This document shows, piece after piece, positions 6,754 to 62,217 of a stretch of 64,000 nt of DNA (positions are counted from its first letter, which is position 1; each line of letters begins with the position of its first letter). The translations under genes were made by a program, and so were the position numbers. The notes under the pieces are model-generated. The model was not told the DNA's origin. It did not search any database and saw nothing but the letters and a program-made list of their open reading frames with translations. The stretch is from a phage: sequence record NC_042307.1; one strand, written 5' to 3'.

Positions 6754-7506
6754 TTACACCTTCCCCATGTCTTTAAAAATATCGTAGAATGCTTTAGACT
6801 CAGCAGAACGAACGTTATCAATCAATTCGATCATTGAGAATGGAGCATTTTCATATTTCTCATAAACTTCCATAAGAAGTGCTAGACCTGAGTCACCTTT
6901 AATGTCTTTCTGAGCTATATCTCCGCAGATAATTAAACGGCAGTCTTGTCCTACACGAGTTAGGAGACAAACCATTGCCTCAACGGAAATATTCTGAGCT
7001 TCATCGACAATTACATAGGAGTTGTTGAAAGTTCTGCCACGAGCATGTTCTATAGCCAAAAATTTAATTTTCTGACGTTCGACATATCCCTTATAGGCAT
7101 GATCACCGATGGCCCATTTCATACCATCAGCTATTGGCTCCAACCAAGGCTCTAGCTTTTCTGCTAGATCACCAGGAAGCATACCAAGAGACTTACCTAG
7201 AGGTTCATTAGGACGTACGAGGATCACTTGCTCAATATCTGAGTGAATGTCTACGAGTTCCTGAGCTGCAAGAACAGACGGGATAAAGGTTTTACCTGTA
7301 CCTGGCTCACCGATACCCACAGTCACTGTGTTGTTCTTGATCATATTAATATATGATTTTTGCTCTCGGTTTTTACCTACTAGGGATTTAGCAACTGGGT
7401 TAGCGTAATCATTAGAAAAATCAGCCTGAATTACGTTATTCTCATATTTGTTGCCACGCTTTCTTGAACCATTGCGGTTCTCTCTTTTTTGACGTGCTTT
7501 TCCCAT
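6754..7506 (-). CDS. phoH: PhoH-like ATPase
   Basis: Walker A GIGEPGTGKTF, Walker B VIVDEAQN; start taken at ATG 7506 with AGGAG upstream (track start 7515 is GTG). Confidence 0.8.
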   Translation of the reverse strand: MGKARQKRENRNGSRKRGNKYENNVIQADFSNDYANPVAKSLVGKNREQKSYINMIKNNTVTVGIGEPGTGKTFIPSVLAAQELVDIHSDIEQVILVRPNEPLGKSLGMLPGDLAEKLEPWLEPIADGMKWAIGDHAYKGYVERQKIKFLAIEHARGRTFNNSYVIVDEAQNISVEAMVCLLTRVGQDCRLIICGDIAQKDIKGDSGLALLMEVYEKYENAPFSMIELIDNVRSAESKAFYDIFKDMGKV

Positions 7507-7748
7507 AAATAACACTCCTATAGTGTACTTCGCTTCTAACAGAGGATCAACAAAGAGATCTTGTTTATCAACTTACAAATATATTATAACAAGGTTTACA
7601 GCAAAAAGCAAGTATAATTTTAAATAAACCTATGATATTGCTTTTAAATAAAAAATTTACTTGCTTATAAAGGTAGAAATATGATACTAGATAATCATTT
7701 ATTTATATGCGAAATATTACAGTATTAGATGGCGAAAGAAAATTTTAA

Positions 7749-7777
7749 TTGACATAGTGGATAATGTTTAGTATAAT
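7749..7777 (+). promoter_or_regulatory. consensus sigma70 promoter TTGACA-17-TATAAT
   Basis: exact consensus hexamers at 7749-7754 and 7772-7777. Confidence 0.7.
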
Positions 7778-7800
7778 AGGTGTAAAAATTCTGTGGAGAA

Positions 7801-8670
7801 GTGGAATGCCCGAAAAAATTAACTCAAGAAGAAGTAGATAAATGCCTAGCCGAGCGTGGTTTTACTATGGTGGATAAGCCATATCAAAATTCTAGGTATA
7901 GGCATACGTATCAGTGTGAATACGGTCACCAATGGACAGCTAAATTTGACGCTATTAGGAATGGAAAGACCAATTGTCCTACTTGCTCTATTAGTAGCCG
8001 TAAACTAGATATTGATAAAATTAATACTATATTACAGGACAGAGGTATTACATTGTTGAACGGCTATAAAAATAGTGCCGATATAAATACTAAATTTAGG
8101 TGTGTTTGTGGTCATGAGTGGGCTACTACACTTAATAGTATAATTAATAGAGGTAGTGGCTGCCCATCTTGTGCTGCTAATAAACAGAAACTTAGTGTTA
8201 ATACTATAAATGATCGTCTTGCTGCCAGAAATATCAGAATAGTGGGTGAGTATAGTAATGCGAATACTAAGACCGCCTTTCTTTGTGGTGCAGGGCATAG
8301 GTGGGAAGCTACTCCAGGGTCTGTATTAAGGGGGAACGGTTGTCCTTACTGTAGTTATAGAGATTTAGAAAGTACTAGGATATATGTTATGTATAGCCCC
8401 TCACATGGGGTTAAAATAGGTAGGTCTAACAATCCAGAGCGTAGACTTCTACATATTAGATCTAGTAGCCACCTTATTGATTTGGAAATAATTAAAGTAT
8501 TTGAAATTGGGGAATATAGTAGTGCAGTTCGAATAGAAAAATTAGCCCATAACTACTTTAAAGAGCAGAATTGCCAGTACAAAGATTTTGACGGCGCTAC
8601 GGAATTCTTCAATATTGAACCAAAAGTAGCTATAAAGTTTATCGAGGAAATAATCAATGACAGAGAATGA
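7801..8670 (+). CDS. putative homing endonuclease: three tandem zinc-ribbon repeats plus C-terminal GIY-YIG-like/T5orf172-like domain
   Basis: repeats ..GEYSNANTKTAFLCGAGHRWEATPGSVLRGNGCPYCS; C-terminal IYVMYSPSHGVKIGRSNNPERRL; GTG start; paralogous to 60056..60730. Confidence 0.5.
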   Translation: MECPKKLTQEEVDKCLAERGFTMVDKPYQNSRYRHTYQCEYGHQWTAKFDAIRNGKTNCPTCSISSRKLDIDKINTILQDRGITLLNGYKNSADINTKFRCVCGHEWATTLNSIINRGSGCPSCAANKQKLSVNTINDRLAARNIRIVGEYSNANTKTAFLCGAGHRWEATPGSVLRGNGCPYCSYRDLESTRIYVMYSPSHGVKIGRSNNPERRLLHIRSSSHLIDLEIIKVFEIGEYSSAVRIEKLAHNYFKEQNCQYKDFDGATEFFNIEPKVAIKFIEEIINDRE

Positions 8671-10483
8671 ATTAATTGAGAATTGCAAAGGTCTGCTCAC
8701 TCTAACTGCGGATAAGGACTTACAGCATAATAATGCTAATAAGCCTAGTGAGATGTTCCATACTCAAAGAGACTTATTGGCCGGAGAAATCAACAAATAT
8801 TTAGTATCGCAGGAATTACCCAAACATCTATTAGACGCCCATAATCTAGGTAAGATACACATTCATGATATGGATTACAGGGCGCAGGGGTACACTAACT
8901 GTTGCTTAGTAGACCTTGGTGGCATGCTGAAGAATGGTACTAAAATTGGTAATGCAAATATTGAAACTCCTAAATCCATAACTACTGCATGTGCAATCAC
9001 TGCTCAGATTATTGCCCAAGTATCTGGTGCTCAGTATGGTGGCACCTCTATTGATCGTATCGACGAGGTTCTAGCCCCGTATGTCAGAAAGTCTTACAAT
9101 AAACATCTGGGTCGTGGGCTACGTTGGCTCAAGGATGAAAGAAAAGCTGCTGTGTATGCTACTGAGCTTACTGAAAAAGAGTGTTATGATGCATTCCAAG
9201 CTCTAGAGTATGAAACTAATTCATTATTTAACTCTAATGGGCAGACCCCTTTTGTTACGCTTGGCTTTGGATTAGGTCAGGAGTGGGAGGAAAGGATGAT
9301 TCAGAAAGCCATCCTCCAAAATCGTATTAAAGGTTTAGGTGCTGCTGAGTCAACCCCTATCTTCCCTAAACTAGTATTCTCAGTTAAAGAAGGGTTAAAT
9401 AAAAATCCAGGCGATCCTAACTACGATATAAAACAGCTAGCACTTGAGTGTTCTGCTACCCGTATGTACCCAGACTATTTAAGCTATGAGAAAGTTGTAG
9501 CTGTTACTGGTGATTTTAAAGCCCCTATGGGTTGTCGTAGCTTTTTATCTGCTATCCCCTCCGGAGAAATTGCAGGGCGCAATAATTTAGGTGTAGTGTC
9601 TATTAATCTACCTATGGTTGCTGCTGAGGCAGATGGGGTTTTTGAAGATTTCTGGGATATTCTGGACAAATATGTGGATGAGGCTTTTGAAGCTCATGAT
9701 TTTTTCTTGGATAGACTTAAGAAAGTGAAGGCTAAACAAGCCCCTATTCTTTATATGCACGGTGGTTTTGGTGTGCGTTTAGATGGGGAAGAGTATGTAT
9801 GGCCTATTTTTGAGGGTAGATCTTCTGTATCTCTTGGATACATTGGGGTCTATGAGATGTGCCAAATAATGTTTAGTCTACCACAAACCCATAGGGATTG
9901 TATTGAATTTACAGAAGAAGTTCTTACTCACCTAAAAAATCGTTGCGAAGTTAAAGCTAATGAGACTAATCTTGGATTTAGCTTATACGCTACCCCTAGT
10001 GAGTCTCTATGTAATCGTTTTAATAAATTACTAGAACGTAGATTCCCAGAGTATTCTTGGTTAACAGACAAAGGCTATCTTACTAATAGTCACCATTTGG
10101 ACGTAAGAGAGAAGGTAGCCCCAGATACTAAATTTGAGTACGAAGCTCATTTTACCAAAATAGCTAATGGTGGTAATATATCGTTTGTGGAATTACCACA
10201 AATGAAAAAATTCCATAAAGCTCTTGAATACGTAGTAGATAAGGGACTAGAGTGTAGCCATTATATCGGTGTTAATATACCGATTGACGAGTGTTTCAAC
10301 TGTGGATATATGGGTGAATCTATTGCCTCTGAGCGTGGGTTTGTATGTCCAAGTTGTGGGTCTGAAGAAATAGAGGTTACACGTAGGGTTTGCGGGTACC
10401 TGGGATCCCCGGGCAGTAGGCCTTTCAATTCTGGGAAACAAAAAGAAGTGCTTGGTAGAGTAAAACACTTAAATCTTAAGTAA
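8657..10483 (+). CDS. nrdD: anaerobic ribonucleoside-triphosphate reductase
   Basis: 608 aa; C-terminal glycyl-radical motif RRVCGYLG and zinc site CPSCGS. Confidence 0.9.
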   Translation: MTENELIENCKGLLTLTADKDLQHNNANKPSEMFHTQRDLLAGEINKYLVSQELPKHLLDAHNLGKIHIHDMDYRAQGYTNCCLVDLGGMLKNGTKIGNANIETPKSITTACAITAQIIAQVSGAQYGGTSIDRIDEVLAPYVRKSYNKHLGRGLRWLKDERKAAVYATELTEKECYDAFQALEYETNSLFNSNGQTPFVTLGFGLGQEWEERMIQKAILQNRIKGLGAAESTPIFPKLVFSVKEGLNKNPGDPNYDIKQLALECSATRMYPDYLSYEKVVAVTGDFKAPMGCRSFLSAIPSGEIAGRNNLGVVSINLPMVAAEADGVFEDFWDILDKYVDEAFEAHDFFLDRLKKVKAKQAPILYMHGGFGVRLDGEEYVWPIFEGRSSVSLGYIGVYEMCQIMFSLPQTHRDCIEFTEEVLTHLKNRCEVKANETNLGFSLYATPSESLCNRFNKLLERRFPEYSWLTDKGYLTNSHHLDVREKVAPDTKFEYEAHFTKIANGGNISFVELPQMKKFHKALEYVVDKGLECSHYIGVNIPIDECFNCGYMGESIASERGFVCPSCGSEEIEVTRRVCGYLGSPGSRPFNSGKQKEVLGRVKHLNLK

Positions 10484-10490
10484 GCTAATC

Positions 10491-10529
10491 AGCCAGGTTG
10501 CTAGTCGACCTGGCTTTTATTTTATTTGC
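10491..10529 (+). terminator. rho-independent terminator after nrdD
   Basis: stem AGCCAGGT/ACCTGGCT then TTTTATTTTATTT. Confidence 0.7.
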
Positions 10530-10554
10530 TTTCAGCTAAAAATTTATGTATAAT
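10526..10554 (+). promoter_or_regulatory. T5-type early promoter TTGCTT-17-TATAAT
   Basis: followed by conserved ATAAATTTGAGAGG leader and ATG at 10583. Confidence 0.65.
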
Positions 10555-10582
10555 AGATTTATAAATTTGAGAGGAAAAGACT

Positions 10583-17580: not shown

Positions 17581-17815
17581 AAAATGGGAAACAAGGAAGT
17601 TTCCAGTAAAAGAACGTAAAGTTCCTGTTTATGATACTTCGGAGAAGCTATGTAGGGTGGTTCCTGCTAGACTAGCATCCATAAATGGCATAGGCGCATG
17701 GTTGCTAAAGCAGAGAAAGCAAAGCATATCATTACGTATATCTTTTGAGTTAGACCAAATCTATAGAGAATTGGGAGAATTGATTAAAGAAAATGATAAC
17801 ACAGGAAGAGGTTAG
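17564..17815 (+). CDS. hypothetical small basic protein (83 aa)
   Basis: ATG overlaps the stop of the upstream gene. Confidence 0.35.
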   Translation: MTVKNKKWETRKFPVKERKVPVYDTSEKLCRVVPARLASINGIGAWLLKQRKQSISLRISFELDQIYRELGELIKENDNTGRG

Positions 17816-18251
17816 AGAGGCTTTTGAGTATGATCCTGAAACAGGCCATCTTAAATGGAAGAAAACAAGACAGAAGAGTCTAGTAGGTAAGTTTGCCGGT
17901 GGTAAACATAAAGGGTATATAAGAATAGGGTTTAAGCGTAGGCACTGGGGAGAACATCAGCTGGTATTCTTATATCATAAGGGGTACATACCAGAAGAGA
18001 TAGACCACAAAAACAGGATTAAAGATTGCAACTTTATAGAGAATTTAGAAGACTCCAATAGATCTAAGCAAATGCACAATATTAATGTACGTAAAGACAA
18101 TAAGTTGGGTGAGCCTAATATCTACATGAGGGGCGATAAATATTGTGTGCTAATGCAGAAAGGATCTATTCGTAAGTACCAGCAGTGCAATACTATAGAA
18201 GAGGCTAAAAAAGTTAGGGCTAATTTTAAGTCCGAACTCTATCCAAATTAA
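17793..18251 (+). CDS. HNH homing endonuclease
   Basis: MITQEEVREAFEYDPETGHL..GYIRIGFKRRHWGEHQLVFLYHKGYIPEEIDHKNRIKD. Confidence 0.7.
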   Translation: MITQEEVREAFEYDPETGHLKWKKTRQKSLVGKFAGGKHKGYIRIGFKRRHWGEHQLVFLYHKGYIPEEIDHKNRIKDCNFIENLEDSNRSKQMHNINVRKDNKLGEPNIYMRGDKYCVLMQKGSIRKYQQCNTIEEAKKVRANFKSELYPN

Positions 18252-18259
18252 AAATTTAT

Positions 18260-18288
18260 TTGCTTTCAGGAAAAATTTTCTGTATAAT
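18260..18288 (+). promoter_or_regulatory. T5 PN25-like early promoter (TTGCTT-17-TATAAT)
   Basis: AAAATTTATTTGCTTTCAGGAAAAATTTTCTGTATAATAGATTCATAAATTTGAGAGAGGAGTT matches the PN25 sequence as I recall it. Confidence 0.75.
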
Positions 18289-18319
18289 AGATTCATAAAT
18301 TTGAGAGAGGAGTTTAAAT

Positions 18320-19818: not shown

Positions 19819-20116
19819 ATGACCAAAGCTGAAATTATCGCACAATGTGAAAAATTTGGTGAGTTTTATCTTCATTACGAGAAACTTCGTCAGAAAGGAA
19901 CCACGTACCTTCAGGGTACGATGGAATTTGATCCAGCTCAGGATAAATACCTGGCTGAGCGTATTAAACAGTGAACGTATTCGTAAAGCGAAAGATGATG
20001 AAATCCTTGTCTTCTCTCGTACTAATGATAGCTTCCGTTTTATTCCTGTCGAGAAAGTTCGTCGTGTGACTAGCCTCCAATCAGAGTTAGATCGTGCTTC
20101 TCCAGTAGGCCGATAA
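19819..20116 (+). CDS. hypothetical protein encoded in two frames: ORF-A 19819..19974 ends at TGA, coding signal continues in +1 frame to 20116 (see findings)
   Basis: AAAAGGAA upstream of ATG 19819; CGT-rich coding frame downstream of the TGA. Confidence 0.45.
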
Positions 20117-20126
20117 GAAAACAATT

Positions 20127-20150
20127 AGCCCCTATATGGGGCTTTTTGTG
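20127..20150 (+). terminator. rho-independent terminator
   Basis: AGCCCC-TATAT-GGGGCT then TTTTT. Confidence 0.7.
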
Positions 20151-20166
20151 TATTTGGGATGTGTAA

Positions 20167-20475
20167 ATGAGCGAACAGGTAAATCAAAACTATGAAGGAC
20201 ACGTTGATGACCAGTCCATCATACTTTGGGAGAAGGAGGGGGAACAAGTAAGATTAACAGTATCTGAATTTCGTGGGAATCTATACATGGGTATTCGTTA
20301 CTGGCTTCTTGATATTAATGATGAATGGTTTCCAACGAAATCTGGCTTCTCTTTTCCTTACACCCTAGAAACAACATCACAGCTTTTCTATGCGTTTACA
20401 CAGATTCTTAGCGAATCTGAGGTTTTACATGAAGTACAGAAACGAGCTGAAGAACTAAAAGCCAAGAATGCCTAG
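20167..20475 (+). CDS. hypothetical protein (102 aa)
   Basis: ORF track. Confidence 0.45.
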   Translation: MSEQVNQNYEGHVDDQSIILWEKEGEQVRLTVSEFRGNLYMGIRYWLLDINDEWFPTKSGFSFPYTLETTSQLFYAFTQILSESEVLHEVQKRAEELKAKNA

Positions 20476-55902: not shown

Positions 55903-57279
55903 TTAAGCGGTAGCGTAAGCACCGGATACAACACCATTACTAAAGTAACGTTGCAGGTTAACACGCTGAGTAACGTAGTATGCATCACGCTGTTTACCAG
56001 CTTGGCGCTCACGTTCAACAGTAACAGCACGCTGACGTGGCATTACGAAGTTATCTTTATAAACAATAACTGCGAACTCTTTCTCAGCTGCTTTAGCTGG
56101 GAAGTACTCAGAAACCACAACCGGCAGACCATAAATACGACCAACCTGACCTTGCAGTTTAACAGCATCGTTACCAACCTGTGCAACATCCTGCCATTCT
56201 TCATCTTCCAGAAGATCATAGTAAGCATCCATAGATACGATAAGTACCAGTTTGCTCAGTTTCAGACCATGACGGCCCAGTTTACGACGCAGTTTAGAGA
56301 TAGTTTTAGCAGTTACCAGAACAGAACCATCAGCTTTAGCTTCAGTAGTAACTTTAGCACCATCATCTTCAGCCAGTTTCAACAGACCTTTCGGCTTACC
56401 AGTACCATCACCAGTCATAAAAGCTTCTTCGATAGAAACAGCGTGTGCTTCAATCAGACGCTTACGCAGCAGCGGCAGCAGGGAGAAGATTGCATCTTCT
56501 TCAGTTTCATCAGTAATGAAGGACTTAGCAGCCAGTTTGTAAGTACTGAAGTGAATTTCTTTAAGAGCACCTTTAACTTCATCACCGGTAGTAGTATCAG
56601 TACCATAAGTAGAAGCAGCAACCCAAGTAGCTTTACCAGCATCCGGTTCAACCAGCATAGTAAGAATCTTACTGGACATCGGCAGTTCTTCAAACAGTGC
56701 GCCAACTACCAGCTCTTTCTGCAGGTCACGGATAATACGCTGAGAGAAAATAGTTTCATAGCTTTCACTAGAAACTTCTACAGAAGAAGACTGATTCACT
56801 GCTTTCAGGTGTTTTTGACCGTGTTCGGTTTCGAATACACCTTTTTCCATTACGTAAGACAACAGAACCAGTTTTTCTACTTCGTCTTCAAAGTTTTCCT
56901 GAGTACCATACAGTGCTTTAGCAACACTATCACCAACGAAGGAACGACCTTCACGAGCTGTTAGCAGAGATTTAATTTCGTCCTGAAGACCAACAATAGT
57001 TTCCTGTTGTTTTTCTACAGTTTGTGCAAACAGTTCTGCGCTCTTCTTAGATTTCTCATCCAGAGACTTAACCAAATCCAGAGCCTCTTCCAGACGCTTA
57101 CGGTCTTCACCAACAGCTTTAGAAACTAGGTCATTCATACGAGCCAGTTCTTTTTCTTCCTGCTCTTTACGCATACGTTCAGCTTCCTGAGCTTTCTGAG
57201 CAGCGGTCAGACCTTCCAGAGATTTAGCCAGATCACCCAGACCAAGTTCTTCTTTCAGCTTATTAATATCAATAGTCAT
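55903..57279 (-). CDS. major capsid protein precursor with N-terminal scaffold-like domain (pb8-like)
   Basis: 458 aa; charged coiled-coil N-terminal third then HK97-like fold region; strong terminator downstream. Confidence 0.7.
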   Translation of the reverse strand: MTIDINKLKEELGLGDLAKSLEGLTAAQKAQEAERMRKEQEEKELARMNDLVSKAVGEDRKRLEEALDLVKSLDEKSKKSAELFAQTVEKQQETIVGLQDEIKSLLTAREGRSFVGDSVAKALYGTQENFEDEVEKLVLLSYVMEKGVFETEHGQKHLKAVNQSSSVEVSSESYETIFSQRIIRDLQKELVVGALFEELPMSSKILTMLVEPDAGKATWVAASTYGTDTTTGDEVKGALKEIHFSTYKLAAKSFITDETEEDAIFSLLPLLRKRLIEAHAVSIEEAFMTGDGTGKPKGLLKLAEDDGAKVTTEAKADGSVLVTAKTISKLRRKLGRHGLKLSKLVLIVSMDAYYDLLEDEEWQDVAQVGNDAVKLQGQVGRIYGLPVVVSEYFPAKAAEKEFAVIVYKDNFVMPRQRAVTVERERQAGKQRDAYYVTQRVNLQRYFSNGVVSGAYATA

Positions 57280-57296
57280 TTTTAAATAATTCTCCG

Positions 57297-57929
57297 TTAT
57301 TCTTTAACGTAGCCTAAAGCTATCGCAAGTTTTTCTAGTTCAGAAAGATTACGTTCTTGAGCTGGGACAGCTTTAGAACTTATTGCAGTAAAAGATTTAC
57401 GCCATTCAGTATAATCATGACCATTCATGCTCTTAGCGAGATTGAATGTTGAGTCCTGATTACAAGGTACAGAAACTACCGAGACTTCGTATAGTTCTAA
57501 ATCTTTAATAATAAATATATCAGTAGCTTCATCCCACTCTGCATCTAGGCAGCGGAATCCGATACTAAAAGTTTTCAGTACACCGTTTTTAATTAGTGAA
57601 AAGATAGCCGGATCAGAACTTTCATAGATCTCGCATTCGATTTCGAGACCCATTTCAGTAGGGTTAAGATCAATACACTTACCGATTGGACGACGATGAT
57701 CGTGTCCGAAAAGAATAATCGGGTTTTTCATGTAGTTAGTAAGTGCATTAGACGTTTTCCACGCAGAAGCAGGAATTACATCACCAGCGCGATCTTTACT
57801 AATTGTATTAGCGAATCCACGGATTTTTACAACACCTTCTTTGGATTCGCTATCAATAGATTTAATATAAGCATCTAAATGAACGGGTGCTGATTTTAAC
57901 TTGTTATAGTCAATAGCAGCTTGTGTCAT
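57297..57929 (-). CDS. prohead protease
   Basis: 210 aa; position between capsid and decoration/portal genes. Confidence 0.55.
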   Translation of the reverse strand: MTQAAIDYNKLKSAPVHLDAYIKSIDSESKEGVVKIRGFANTISKDRAGDVIPASAWKTSNALTNYMKNPIILFGHDHRRPIGKCIDLNPTEMGLEIECEIYESSDPAIFSLIKNGVLKTFSIGFRCLDAEWDEATDIFIIKDLELYEVSVVSVPCNQDSTFNLAKSMNGHDYTEWRKSFTAISSKAVPAQERNLSELEKLAIALGYVKE

Positions 57930-57932
57930 TTA

Positions 57933-58415
57933 TTAGCCTCCAACACCAAGGTTAACTGTCACAGTACACGCAGTAGAATCCTTACTTACTCGCTTACTAT
58001 CTGTTACAGTTACTTTATAAGAGCCTGCATCCTCAGCTGCTGCTGTAGGCTTAGTATAGGTAGCTCCTGAAGCACCAGGAATAGGAGAACCATTTTTAGT
58101 CCATGCATAGGTATATGGACCAGTACCACCAGTTGCAGTAACAGAAAGTGTTAAAGCTGCTCCAGTATCAACGGACATGCTAGCAGTTAAATCTTTAGAA
58201 AGAGTTAATGGTGGAGCTGGAGGAATTGCTTTACCATAAGCCTCTACAAATTTCTTCCATACTTTACGGTTAGTATGCGCAGATGAAAGTCCTAGTTCTC
58301 TACGCAGAAAAGCATAGCTAGGAACATATTTATGCGCAGCAACCGTAGCAAAGAAGATATGAGATTCTGGTAGTTTTTCACCAAAAATGGTCCTTAGACC
58401 ACTATAATCAATCAT
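57933..58415 (-). CDS. capsid decoration protein with Ig-like domain
   Basis: 160 aa; C-terminal ..TATGGTGPYTYAWTKNGSPIPGASGATYT.. is Ig-like. Confidence 0.5.
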   Translation of the reverse strand: MIDYSGLRTIFGEKLPESHIFFATVAAHKYVPSYAFLRRELGLSSAHTNRKVWKKFVEAYGKAIPPAPPLTLSKDLTASMSVDTGAALTLSVTATGGTGPYTYAWTKNGSPIPGASGATYTKPTAAAEDAGSYKVTVTDSKRVSKDSTACTVTVNLGVGG

Positions 58416-58417
58416 TC

Positions 58418-59629
58418 TTAATCTCCCTCGGTGGAACCTTTAGGTCTACCACCTTCTTGACCAGATACACCTGTTGCAGAACCAGCGACGTTAGCAGGAA
58501 TACGGATCTTATTCATCTGCTCATCATCTAAAGGCTCAAGGTTCAGCTCTGAACGAGCTTCGTTACCGGTTATAATACCATTATTAACCAATGAGGTTAA
58601 ATGTTTAGCCTCTGCTTCTTTATCTGGTGTTAATGCTGCGACTTCCTTAGTATTAGGAGTGATCTTATAACCAAAAAAGAAAGTAAGAGAACTAGTCAGT
58701 TTGTTCAGCATAGGAATGATAGTCATATAATAGAACAATTCGATGTTTGGTCGAATGTTCGCATTATTACCACCATCAAGCAGTACTTGCGGAACTCCAA
58801 AGGCTAGACAAATAGATTTATTAAATCCTTCGATGTCTTCCTTAAAGTCTAGATCTTTAAAAGAGGATATTTGGGAGTACGGTTTAGCTTTCATACCACC
58901 ATCTAGAATCAGGACAGAAGACTGACCCGTACTAGGATTATAATCGAGTTGTAATTCTTCTTGTTTACGCTCACGCAATTTCTTGTTCAGGATTTCATCC
59001 GTCTCAAGAATAAGACCAATCACGGTTCCGTTATCGAGGAATTTCTCTTTAAAGTTAAGCATCTTAGAACGCTTCTCAAGAGAATCAATAACAGTAGCAA
59101 CACGAGATTGTCCAGAAATTTGAGAGTTTGTGCCACACACGTAACTGTTATCCTTTATAAAGATAATCTCATCTACGCGATAGTCTATCTGATTATTAAA
59201 TGTAAATTTTTTGATAAACTTATTGGCATCTGCCTCGACCTGCATAAGAGCAGCCGGGACGTGGTAAAGCGATGTGCCATCCCAATAGATGTATGCACAA
59301 CCTTCAAAAAGTAGGTCAGTGACTACAAGTCTACGGAATGTGCTTATATCCATGAATGGATTAGGTCGTACATTTAAGAGAGTGTCTAGAGTCTTTGTTT
59401 TGACGCCATTAGCGTACGTAACAATATTATATTTATCTCCGACAGTATAAGAACACTCCGCCGCACTATCTATAACCATATTAGCAGTTCGATTGAGAAT
59501 CTCAATCTTGCTATAGGCTTGTCCAGTGGTAAAAGGCTTACGGTTAGTGCGATGACTAACTGGTTCCATGTCTCTTATAATACGTTGACCCGGATTTAGC
59601 TTTTCAGTAATCCAGCTTTTAAAACCCAT
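58418..59629 (-). CDS. portal protein
   Basis: 403 aa; position next to terminase. Confidence 0.65.
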   Translation of the reverse strand: MGFKSWITEKLNPGQRIIRDMEPVSHRTNRKPFTTGQAYSKIEILNRTANMVIDSAAECSYTVGDKYNIVTYANGVKTKTLDTLLNVRPNPFMDISTFRRLVVTDLLFEGCAYIYWDGTSLYHVPAALMQVEADANKFIKKFTFNNQIDYRVDEIIFIKDNSYVCGTNSQISGQSRVATVIDSLEKRSKMLNFKEKFLDNGTVIGLILETDEILNKKLRERKQEELQLDYNPSTGQSSVLILDGGMKAKPYSQISSFKDLDFKEDIEGFNKSICLAFGVPQVLLDGGNNANIRPNIELFYYMTIIPMLNKLTSSLTFFFGYKITPNTKEVAALTPDKEAEAKHLTSLVNNGIITGNEARSELNLEPLDDEQMNKIRIPANVAGSATGVSGQEGGRPKGSTEGD

Positions 59630-60066
59630 TATAAGAACCTTGCGAATCCTGATTTTGTTTCAGTCTTGACTTGTGTCTTTTCTTGAGGATTCTGTATTTT
59701 GTCTTTCTGCTTTTGAACCCACACTTTTTGCTTATTAGCAGAAAATAAAGGAGGTTCTTTTGTGTAAACCTTATGTAATAGTTGGTGATGGTGCTGGCAC
59801 AATGTTACCACGTCCCTAACTAACTCATGCTCATATTTCTTGTAGAATGCTTCCCTATTTGAAAGGACGATATTCTCATCAGTGAAATCCAGCTGGAGTT
59901 CTTTAGCAAATTTTTTTATTAGCTGAGATATAGTATGATAGTGATGAAGTTCTAGGTCTTCACTACTACCACATATAGCACAGCAACCATCCTTACTATA
60001 CCTAGATTTTATACCATCCCTCATTATGGAAATGGCATCACGTTTGTACTTAGTATTAGTGGCCAT
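59629..60066 (-). CDS. HNH endonuclease (classical HNH with Zn-binding cysteines), terminase-associated
   Basis: CCAICGSSEDLELHHYHTIS...LCQHHHQLLH; ATG 60066 with GGAGGA upstream. Confidence 0.7.
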   Translation of the reverse strand: MATNTKYKRDAISIMRDGIKSRYSKDGCCAICGSSEDLELHHYHTISQLIKKFAKELQLDFTDENIVLSNREAFYKKYEHELVRDVVTLCQHHHQLLHKVYTKEPPLFSANKQKVWVQKQKDKIQNPQEKTQVKTETKSGFARFL

Positions 60067-60730
60067 ACTCCTCCAATCCAAAGCTATTTAGAAAGATTAC
60101 TATATCCTCAGGAGCAACATTAAAAAATTCCGTGCTTCCTGTAAAATTAGAAAACCCACAGTTTTTATTATAATATTCTCTGTGAACTTCCTTTTCTAAA
60201 TCTAAAGCAGTCTCTCTATCTGGCAGATGATACATGGTGAACAAGTACAGGTCAGAAAATCCAGATTCTCTTTTAACTTCATTCAACCGTTTCTCGGGAT
60301 ATAAGCTTATGCCTACTTTAGTACCGCTAGAGAAGGACATGATATAGAGGAATCCACCATTCTCCCACTTAAGAGAACAATAAGGACATCTCTTACCTTG
60401 AGTCAATCCATCTAAGGTAATGAAACAGTCATGCCCATTATTGCAGCGTAGATGTAGTTTTGTTTTAGCATTAGTATAGCTGCTTAACAGAGTATACCCT
60501 ATATTAGATATTCTGTTACTAACTTCATCTAACGATATTGTATTATTGGAGCAGTGTGGACAACCTCTCCTCATATGGAGTATAGAATGTGGTGTTGCTT
60601 CCCAAACGTGTGCTCTCTGGCATTTAAATACTGTTTTTGTACGTTGGTTTACATATTCACCGACAATTTGGATTCCACGATCAGCTAATCTAATATTTAT
60701 ATCTTTTATTGTTAGCTTTTGTCGACCCAT
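60056..60730 (-). CDS. putative homing endonuclease: zinc-ribbon repeats plus GIY-YIG-like/T5orf172-like domain; paralog of 7801..8670
   Basis: ..GEYVNQRTKTVFKCQRAHVWEATPHSILHMRRGCPHCS.., FLYIMSFSSGTKVGIS; ATG 60730 with AGGAGA upstream. Confidence 0.5.
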   Translation of the reverse strand: MGRQKLTIKDINIRLADRGIQIVGEYVNQRTKTVFKCQRAHVWEATPHSILHMRRGCPHCSNNTISLDEVSNRISNIGYTLLSSYTNAKTKLHLRCNNGHDCFITLDGLTQGKRCPYCSLKWENGGFLYIMSFSSGTKVGISLYPEKRLNEVKRESGFSDLYLFTMYHLPDRETALDLEKEVHREYYNKNCGFSNFTGSTEFFNVAPEDIVIFLNSFGLEEYGH

Positions 60731-60900
60731 AGAATCTCCTACACCCATGTAGAGCATTAATTTTTCTTGTTTACGTTCTATTATGGGAGAAGTTCTCCCG
60801 ATCAATGAATATAGTATACATAATCGTATCGAATTTGTAAAGGGGATTTTAAAATACAGGAATGGGATACCAACTGAGTAGTATCCCATCCTATACTTAT

Positions 60901-62217
60901 TTATTTACCACGGGAAATAGAGTAAATTCCATAGCGGAGCGCGTCACAAAGGTGAGAGTTTGCATCATGACGTGGTTTTTCACGTGATAATTTCTCTTCG
61001 CCTTCCTGGAAGTCCCACTTATAGTTCTGCAATGCATGAATTAAGGAGGAACATGAGGCATCCACAATAATTTTCCCTTGCTGGAATAACGCTTGCAAAC
61101 ATGCTAGGCCATCTAGAACAGATTTTTTAGCTGGAGCTGATGCAATTTCGTGCTCGTAAGCTAAGTCCTGGCGGAATTGGGCTGCTGCGGAGTCCACAAA
61201 GATACGATCAACGTTGTAACGATCTATACAGTGCTGAATATATGCTGCATGTTGAGCCGTGGTCTTCTCAGCTTGCTGGTATTCCTCCAATACATAGTAG
61301 ATATCGGTATCGTAATGATATTTAATAGTAAGAACTGCGGTAGGATCTCGATAACCAACGTCAATACCAAGTAAGGTTTCGAATGCTTCATCATCTTTAA
61401 AGAAGTGACGCATACCTTTAAGGTCTTTAACATGCTCAATGGCGTTGAAGGTATCAAAGATCTGTCCTTCGAACACAGAGAAGTCAGCCTCATATTCTTG
61501 TCGGAAGTAGTTTTTACTAACAGTACGACGAGCTTCCTCGATATCGTTAAGGTCAGCACGTGGGTTGTCACGATACGTCCCATGGATAGATACCCAGTTA
61601 GGTAGTGTCTCGTTAAATCCTTTCTCATAAAACTCTTTGAACCAGTTACCACCACGAGGGGTAGAAATGAAAAGAGCCTTAGAGTTTGGTTTATCTAGGG
61701 TTGGACGAAGCTGAATATCGAATGCAGCACCACCAACGTCAGAGATTGCGGCTTCATCAAAGATGATGAAATCATAGGAACGACCAACTGCGGAGTCAGC
61801 CTGAGCAGCAGAAGCTAATTTGAACAGAGAACCGTTGGCCAGCTCAATTTCTTTATCTTTGGCATTCTCACGCTCAGTCTGCAATCCATATTTTTTAATT
61901 AGACCACGAATCTGTGACCAACCGATGTTTGCTAGTGAGTAGTTAGGTGCAACTACCAGCACTTTTACATTAGGTTCTAGCAGTTTTAGGAACCCAAGTG
62001 TATATGCGATAAATGACTTACCTACACGACGTGATACACAAGCAGTTACGAAACGATGTCTAGGATCTTCCAGTGCGTTAATAATAGCTACCTGAGGGGC
62101 ATTAGGCGTAATCCCCTCTTGAGCTAGAATACTGGAAACTGGTAAACGAAAGAAACGTTTATCAATCCCAAAGTCTATGACGTCTGTTGTGTTAATATAG
62201 GGTCTTGAGACCTCCAT
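60901..62217 (-). CDS. terminase large subunit
   Basis: Walker A SRRVGKSF, Walker B DFIIFDEAA, C-terminal nuclease acidic residues. Confidence 0.85.
   Translation of the reverse strand: MEVSRPYINTTDVIDFGIDKRFFRLPVSSILAQEGITPNAPQVAIINALEDPRHRFVTACVSRRVGKSFIAYTLGFLKLLEPNVKVLVVAPNYSLANIGWSQIRGLIKKYGLQTERENAKDKEIELANGSLFKLASAAQADSAVGRSYDFIIFDEAAISDVGGAAFDIQLRPTLDKPNSKALFISTPRGGNWFKEFYEKGFNETLPNWVSIHGTYRDNPRADLNDIEEARRTVSKNYFRQEYEADFSVFEGQIFDTFNAIEHVKDLKGMRHFFKDDEAFETLLGIDVGYRDPTAVLTIKYHYDTDIYYVLEEYQQAEKTTAQHAAYIQHCIDRYNVDRIFVDSAAAQFRQDLAYEHEIASAPAKKSVLDGLACLQALFQQGKIIVDASCSSLIHALQNYKWDFQEGEEKLSREKPRHDANSHLCDALRYGIYSISRGK

Follow-up and report, generated by a model that had tools for sequence, protein, structure and literature searches.

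Two probable homing endonuclease genes of the T5orf172 family beside nrdD and terL in a T5-like phage

The two genes, their starts and their promoters

The window, i.e., the whole stretch of 64,000 nucleotides of phage DNA that was analysed (record NC_042307.1), carries two homologous genes, hereafter copy 1 and copy 2, both found where the original prediction had placed them (Table 1). Copy 1 lies between phoH and nrdD, and copy 2 between terL and an HNH gene plus the portal gene. BLASTP aligns the two products with 33% identity over 219 aa (E=2e-41) and gives extra, out-of-register alignments, which points to internal repeats. No third copy was found among the six-frame ORFs of at least 50 aa of the window. 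Megablast with both regions, which matched around 440-450 records of T5-like phages, gave as closest records Salmonella phage vB_Sen_SG_WM_RUS_R2, Shigella phage SHSML-45, and Salmonella phage Shivani (Tequintavirus), and the best matches reach 99.7-99.8% identity around copy 1 and 96-97% around copy 2. In GenBank, the relatives of both genes bear the labels 'putative homing endonuclease', 'T5orf172 domain-containing protein', or 'GIY-YIG nuclease family protein'.

Table 1. Features of the two loci (positions in the window unless a phage locus is named; HEG, homing endonuclease gene)
Feature	Position	Strand	Remarks
phoH	6754..7515	-	neighbor of copy 1
Sigma-70-type promoter TTGACA-17-TATAAT, upstream of copy 1	7749..7777	+	12/12 consensus
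Copy 1, putative T5orf172 HEG	7801..8670	+	289 aa, GTG start; corresponds to Shivani gp141 'endonuclease'
Copy 1 zinc-finger array, 3 tandem units of ~62 aa	7810..8361	+	Pfam DUF4379 1.4e-15, CapR 1.2e-12; predicted DNA-binding module
Copy 1 zinc units, separately	7810-7995, 7996-8181, 8182-8361	+	C-x3-H...C-x2-C ligands in each
Copy 1 T5orf172 / GIY-YIG-fold nuclease domain (predicted)	8374..8667	+	invariant Y195, K205, G207, R215, E246, H250, E268
nrdD, anaerobic ribonucleotide reductase	8657..10483	+	start overlaps last 14 nt of copy 1
Copy 1 relic, HildyBeyeler	locus L003, 1235-1345
Copy 1 relic, phC17	locus L005, 2398-2592
HNH-type gene, T5.153; sciA / nicking site-specific endonuclease in relatives	59629..60066	-	annotation in T5, DT57C
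Copy 2, putative T5orf172 HEG	60056..60730	-	224 aa; identical to the 224-aa core of T5.154
Copy 2 zinc units (two)	60730-60545, 60544-60371	-	C-x3-H...C-x2-C ligand positions
Copy 2 T5orf172 domain	60361-60059	-
Copy 2 insertion cassette, ~737 bp	60068..60804	-	junctions vs FFH1, phC11, DT57C, phagemcphageface
Promoter-like TTTACA-17-TATACT	60813..60841	-	10/12 consensus
Terminator-like strong hairpin after terL	60860..60891	-	resident: HEG-less phages too
terL	60901..62217	-	identity to T5 falls from ~100% to ~85%

Residues 4-289 of copy 1 are 100% identical to the SHSML-45 gene, and the region shares 99.7% DNA identity with the Shivani gp141 locus. The difference lies at the start. In the four intact relatives that were aligned (4/4), the gene opens with GGAATGCCGAAAAAA, i.e., ATG CCG AAA AAA (MPKKL...) with GGAG 7 nt upstream, whereas the window reads GGAATGCCCGAAAAAA. 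The window has one additional C, with CCC at 7809-7811 vs CC in SHSML-45, S124, SP3, and SP01, so that 7806-7812 is ATGCCCG and not ATGCCG; compared with Shivani gp141 and the SelmaRatti 'putative homing endonuclease', the window alone carries this C after the ATG. Because of it, the ATG usual in the family (7806) is out of frame and runs into a stop after 11 codons, and the 289-aa frame is open only from GTG 7801, a poorly placed start 2 nt past GGAG. Either sequencing misread a short run of C at this point, or the gene has taken an early step towards decay, and, since the usual ATG is out of frame, the allele of the window may be poorly expressed or beginning to decay.

The full ORF of copy 2 covers 60056..60889 (-), and the well-supported start is 60730, the one originally predicted: AGGAG (60740-60736) lies 5 nt before this ATG, and the 53 codons upstream overlie the terL terminator and the promoter. 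The NCBI product of a protein 98% identical to copy 2 also has 224 aa. The protein of copy 2 shows 100% identity to that of T5 gene T5.154 (YP_006982, 'endonuclease', similar to YomD), and the DNA at 60040-60905 is 100% identical to T5 st0. In the T5 annotation, T5.154 has 277 aa with a 'single transmembrane domain' and spans terminator and promoter; annotations of this type are 53 codons too long. The HNH-type gene homologous to T5.153, for which the Pfam search gave no match at E<=0.01, is the downstream neighbor of copy 2 and lies outside the HEG.

The two promoter sequences that had been proposed exist, and each stands before its gene, but the idea that each gene has a promoter of its own holds only in part. 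The promoter of copy 2 is identical in FFH1, phC11, and DT57C, none of which has an intact HEG, and because HEG-less phages (FFH1) keep both this promoter and the terL terminator, it is resident and would drive the HNH(sciA)-portal operon with or without the HEG. The candidate explanation that the HEG of copy 2 brought its own promoter was rejected on this conservation. At the other locus, the segment with the promoter (~7701-7800) is missing in T5 and phiLLS and retained in the deletion derivatives of copy 1, and this promoter would also serve nrdD, which overlaps the HEG end. In every allele of the nrdD spacer, a near-consensus promoter is found directly before the first gene, which is nrdD in T5 and phiLLS, and the HEG in the window, AKFV33, and NR01; where an HEG is present, its stop and the start of nrdD overlap. 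Both HEGs are thus placed between a promoter and a conserved gene.

Occupancy, relics and mosaic borders of the two sites

Intact copy 1 is present in 26 of the ~440 T5-like records, a record being counted when it covers at least 80% of 7701-8700. T5 has a phoH-nrdD spacer of 361 nt without the gene, and its similarity to the window stops at ~7700. In HildyBeyeler, phC17, phC11, phA11, and three Kenya phages, an in-frame deletion of 663 bp brings 7822 next to 8485 and leaves an ORF of 64 codons, and the ATG of this relic is changed to ATA in phC17. DT57C, DT571/2, and Gostya9 have a larger deletion, ~7800 being joined to 8535. In other phages, the same spacer holds two further T5orf172 lineages (AKFV33/NBEco002 and NR01) or, in phiLLS and SE24, an HNH gene on the opposite strand. 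The phoH-nrdD spacer is a hotspot, with three T5orf172 lineages and an HNH gene across phages.

The 64-codon relic (MPKKL fused to KVFEIGEY...) is found in at least 7 phages and retains the overlap with the nrdD start. With the usual start, the C-terminus of the HEG, and this overlap all still in place, the relic might have been kept because translation of nrdD is coupled to it.

Compared with S124, the window shows as few as 0-3 mismatches per 200 nt only over ~7800-9400, i.e., the HEG and the first ~750 nt of nrdD; outside this tract, the sequences are ~6-25% different on the left and ~2-11% on the right up to the nrdD end. Such a pattern is expected when an HEG has been transferred recently and its flank has been co-converted, and the 5' ~750 nt of nrdD would be part of the tract that moves with copy 1. 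We also considered a target-site signature, in which the divergence of nrdD from T5 is concentrated beside the HEG, and rejected it, the whole gene being a different allele: over the first 390 alignment columns, the two nrdD products share ~60-70% aa identity, and the N-terminus is shorter in the window. T5-like phages have at least two nrdD allele types, and the type of the window occurs in every examined phage with copy 1 or its relic.

The whole segment of copy 2 is found in 73 of 441 T5-like records, and most records match only up to window 60805, just beyond the -10 box. The empty site of FFH1 has the same terL stop, terminator, and promoter, with the start of the HNH gene 18 nt on. The cassette stands in place of these 18 nt, which hold the RBS in FFH1, and its end, i.e., the 3' end of copy 2, carries a new RBS and the start of the HNH gene, whose ATG (60066) overlaps the HEG end. 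Copy 2 is decayed in DT57C (ATG changed to ACG, interior replaced), and its 5' untranslated part alone is left in phC11. Between the window and T5, identity is 99-100% over ~57200-60990, with zero mismatches over 59788-60887, and goes down to ~85% within terL, from ~100-200 bp upstream of the cassette. Copy 2 is thus located exactly at a mosaic boundary.

Further elements were observed elsewhere in the window. Positions 20049-20179 correspond to an empty site, occupied in NR01 and fp01 by a third lineage of T5orf172 HEG. An ORF of 152 aa at 17793-18251 (+) matches Pfam HNH_3 (2.3e-10) within a segment (17764-18249) that is missing in NR01 and fp01, and is probably another free-standing homing endonuclease gene. 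A 53-bp repeat is present at 10521-10573 and 18255-18307, both matched at 87-89% by the NR01, fp01, and NBEco002 loci, and might be a shared regulatory element. The Shivani nrdA (locus L002, 1-912) is annotated 'contains intein splice site', and the AKFV33 paper places an HNH gene in the interval from nrdA to nrdB. Selfish elements seem to be abundant throughout the cluster of nucleotide-metabolism genes in T5-like phages.

Predicted proteins and their reading as homing endonucleases

Zinc-ribbon repeats followed by a GIY-YIG-like/T5orf172-like domain had been predicted, and the profile search proposed as a check recovers both parts: DUF4379 ('probable treble-clef zinc finger'), CapR, T5orf172, and MUG113 score over the Pfam cut-offs in copy 1 and copy 2. 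The repeat unit, put at ~50 aa, needs correction, the actual period being ~60-62 aa in both copies. Complete C-x3-H-x15/16-C-x2-C units number three in copy 1 (residues 39-62, 101-124, 162-184) and two in copy 2 (residues 37-60, 96-118), and in the AF2 model of copy 1 the array is built of a helix, a strand, and a beta-hairpin, three times over. At the C-terminus, T5orf172 (PF10544) and MUG113 (PF13455) reach 43.3 and 44.1 bits in copy 1, and 34.3 and 35.2 bits in copy 2, for gathering cut-offs of 20 and 22.3 bits, respectively. PHROG 681 (phrog_681), 'endonuclease', matches both proteins (2.9e-65 for copy 1, 1.8e-60 for copy 2). PHROG 559 (HNH endonuclease) matches the repeat region only (residues 3-185 and 60-176), and the Pfam search found no HNH catalytic domain in either copy; the HNH homing endonuclease class was rejected on these two grounds. 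The canonical GIY-YIG profile (PF01541) gives no match at E<=1 in either copy, and the second motif is K-I/V-G (KIG), with a Lys in place of the second GIY-YIG Tyr, as is typical of T5orf172. Because both the PF01541 match and a Y-I-G second motif are absent, we set aside the canonical GIY-YIG family (I-TevI/Seg type) and filed the genes under the T5orf172 branch.

Genes of this kind have been described as a class (Barth, Dunham & Seed 2023, PMC10448857): T5orf172 HEGs with at least one CapR/DUF723/DUF4379 zinc-finger domain, enriched in T5-like phages, neighboring terminase in 35% and ribonucleotide reductase in 33% of cases, variable in presence, with frameshifted and deleted alleles, and located at borders of genetic exchange. 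Both copies show the traits of this class, i.e., a T5orf172/MUG113 domain with a zinc-finger module at the opposite terminus; a variable presence with intact flanks (empty sites in T5 for copy 1 and in FFH1 for copy 2); unstable alleles (the 663-bp and DT57C-type deletions and the +1 C for copy 1, the DT57C decay for copy 2); and a position adjoining nrdD and terL/portal with abrupt identity borders. That the genes occur sporadically, leave clean sites where they are absent, and decay into relics also bears out the original view of a single mobile nuclease family. Both are very probably homing endonuclease genes of the free-standing type, in the T5orf172 branch of the GIY-YIG superfamily; we infer for them nuclease activity, the positions of the cleavage sites, and homing.

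Under this homing reading, an extended DNA target would be read by the tandem zinc fingers at the N-terminus, of which copy 1 has three and copy 2 has two, and the C-terminal T5orf172 domain would cut DNA. During mixed infection, the HEG-less allele of a related phage would be cut, near nrdD for copy 1 or near the terL/HNH junction for copy 2, and repair off the HEG-carrying genome would copy the gene and some flank into the cut genome. That both genes are active homing endonucleases, which now set the breakpoints of nrdD and terL-portal alleles among T5-like phages, seems to us evenly balanced between true and false; identity boundaries beside the HEGs could come from ordinary recombination. 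Because sequence appears to move with the HEGs, phylogenies of T5-like phages are better made without three regions: nrdD, the terL 3' end, and the stretch that runs from the head-maturation protease gene to the HNH gene (~57200-60990). As of Barth et al. 2023 (PMC10448857), homing had been experimentally verified for none of the T5orf172 genes. T5 (copy 2 only), the present phage (both copies), and FFH1 (copy-2 site empty) constitute a tractable system for T5orf172 homing, one that could show for the first time by experiment whether a nuclease of this family homes.

One or both proteins could instead have been co-opted for a phage function and have lost homing, acting as a DNA-binding repressor at the adjacent promoter in the manner of CapR or I-TevI, or as an Odn-like nuclease against satellites or competitors. 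Relatives have been recruited before, CapR for repression and Odn for nuclease attack on PLE, and copy 2 sits directly past a promoter, gives the HNH gene its RBS, and is 100% identical to its T5 counterpart. However, this identity spans a block of ~3.8 kb, which indicates recent exchange and not selection on copy 2; both genes are absent in most T5-like phages and have decayed repeatedly, which is unexpected for a useful function; and the nuclease motifs are intact, unlike in CapR, which is without nuclease domain. We consider co-option unlikely, and the class of CapR-type domesticated repressors was rejected, both proteins retaining the complete T5orf172 domain with its motifs intact.

The homing reading also stands against a reading in which the T5orf172 domain merely binds DNA and the proteins are not nucleases. 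The domain bore the older name 'Bacteriophage T5 Orf172 DNA-binding domain', which is still attached to UniRef relatives; the AKFV33 homologues ORF100 and ORF155 were named DNA-binding proteins in the 2012 paper; and, as said, the canonical Pfam model does not match. On the contrary, the model adopts the GIY-YIG alpha/beta fold and its top structural matches are active nucleases: At-HIGLE, an SLX1 homologue (score 7.6), and two SLX1 entries (6.9 and 6.6), followed by the I-TevI catalytic domain (5.0), the AtGRXS16 N-terminal domain (4.9), PD-T4-3 (4.8), UvrC (4.4), and Eco29kI (4.0). In an alignment of eight homologues, 32-61% identical to copy 1, the invariant columns include Y195, G203, K205, G207, R215, E246, H250, and E268-F269-F270 (copy 1 numbering), together with the zinc ligands, and they follow the order of the GIY...(Y/K)IG...R...E motif, its Tyr, Arg, and Glu positions included. 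By this order, Y195, R215, and E268 would be equivalent to Y6, R27, and E75 of I-TevI, and E268 to E180 of Odn. A profile of the eight homologues found nothing meaningful among PDB sequences (best E=0.25, TatD). Finally, purified Odn (ICP1 Gp88), which also belongs to T5orf172, cleaves DNA in vitro, whereas a mutant with E180A, at the residue aligned with the catalytic Glu of I-TevI, is inactive (Barth et al. 2021, PMC8263062). Because of the fold, the invariant motif residues, and the Odn precedent, the nuclease reading is well supported for both predicted proteins, and a purely DNA-binding role is very improbable.

Kinship of the two copies and comparison with known systems

A word-indexed protein search gave 48 and 8 matches, mostly proteins with zinc repeats only and few T5orf172 relatives; for this reason, the neighbor-joining tree was built from the genes of 30 IMG/VR loci together with the homologues from the protein search. 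In this tree, copy 1 and copy 2 belong to separate clades, and the clades follow the insertion site. Copy 1 is 61% and 58% identical to the metagenomic proteins P0002 and P0003, 48%, 47%, and 43% to the nrdD-site genes of NBEco002, AKFV33, and NR01, and 39-40% to the NR01/fp01 lineage. Copy 2 shares 52% identity with its counterpart at the terL site in Klebsiella phage Sugarland. Because each has closer relatives elsewhere and the clades are separate, the paralogy of the two amounts to no more than belonging to one family. The simplest reading is that of independent invasions by different lineages, which fits the repeated invasion proposed as one of two origins in the original prediction; the two copies are separate lineages of the family, each bound to its own insertion site. 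The other proposed origin, a recent duplication inside this phage genome, is hardly credible: the domain architecture is the same and the homology clear (E=2e-41), but the copies share only 33% identity, the same-site relatives in other phages are much closer to each of them, they fall in different clades of the tree, which already refutes it, and T5 has copy 2 without copy 1. Two outcomes had been named beforehand as jointly telling against the prediction, a non-nuclease fold of the C-terminal domains and genes that are not each other's closest relatives; the nuclease fold held, and the two copies are indeed not closest relatives.

The gene class is already known, T5-like phages included (Barth et al. 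2023), and the present case is an ordinary one. Since the class is published and relatives are already annotated, the observation is a correct reading of a known class, and its significance beyond annotation is little, both genes being already in GenBank. What is new here is the locus detail at two T5-like sites, i.e., the exact cassette borders, the relic alleles, the resident promoter, and the frameshift at the start codon.

Among known systems, the class described by Barth et al. 2023, with ICP1 gp165 and gp174 (PMC10448857), shares with both copies the two-part architecture, the variable number of repeats, the neighborhoods, and the genomic signatures, and there is no difference in kind. 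The catalytic domain of Odn is likewise of the T5orf172 type and has the conserved Arg and Glu, but Odn binds DNA through a RepA_N domain and targets a satellite replication origin, whereas the copies have zinc-finger repeats and the look of ordinary homing elements. In the T4 Seg proteins and I-TevI, the order of the domains is reversed, the nuclease being C-terminal in both copies, and the motif is YIG, whereas the copies have KIG and a tandem zinc-ribbon array and are not matched by the Pfam GIY-YIG model. The zinc-finger domain of CapR, the capsid repressor of PLE satellites (Netter et al. 2021, PMC8096241), is homologous to that of the copies (PF21817); by comparison with CapR, both copies retain an intact T5orf172 domain.
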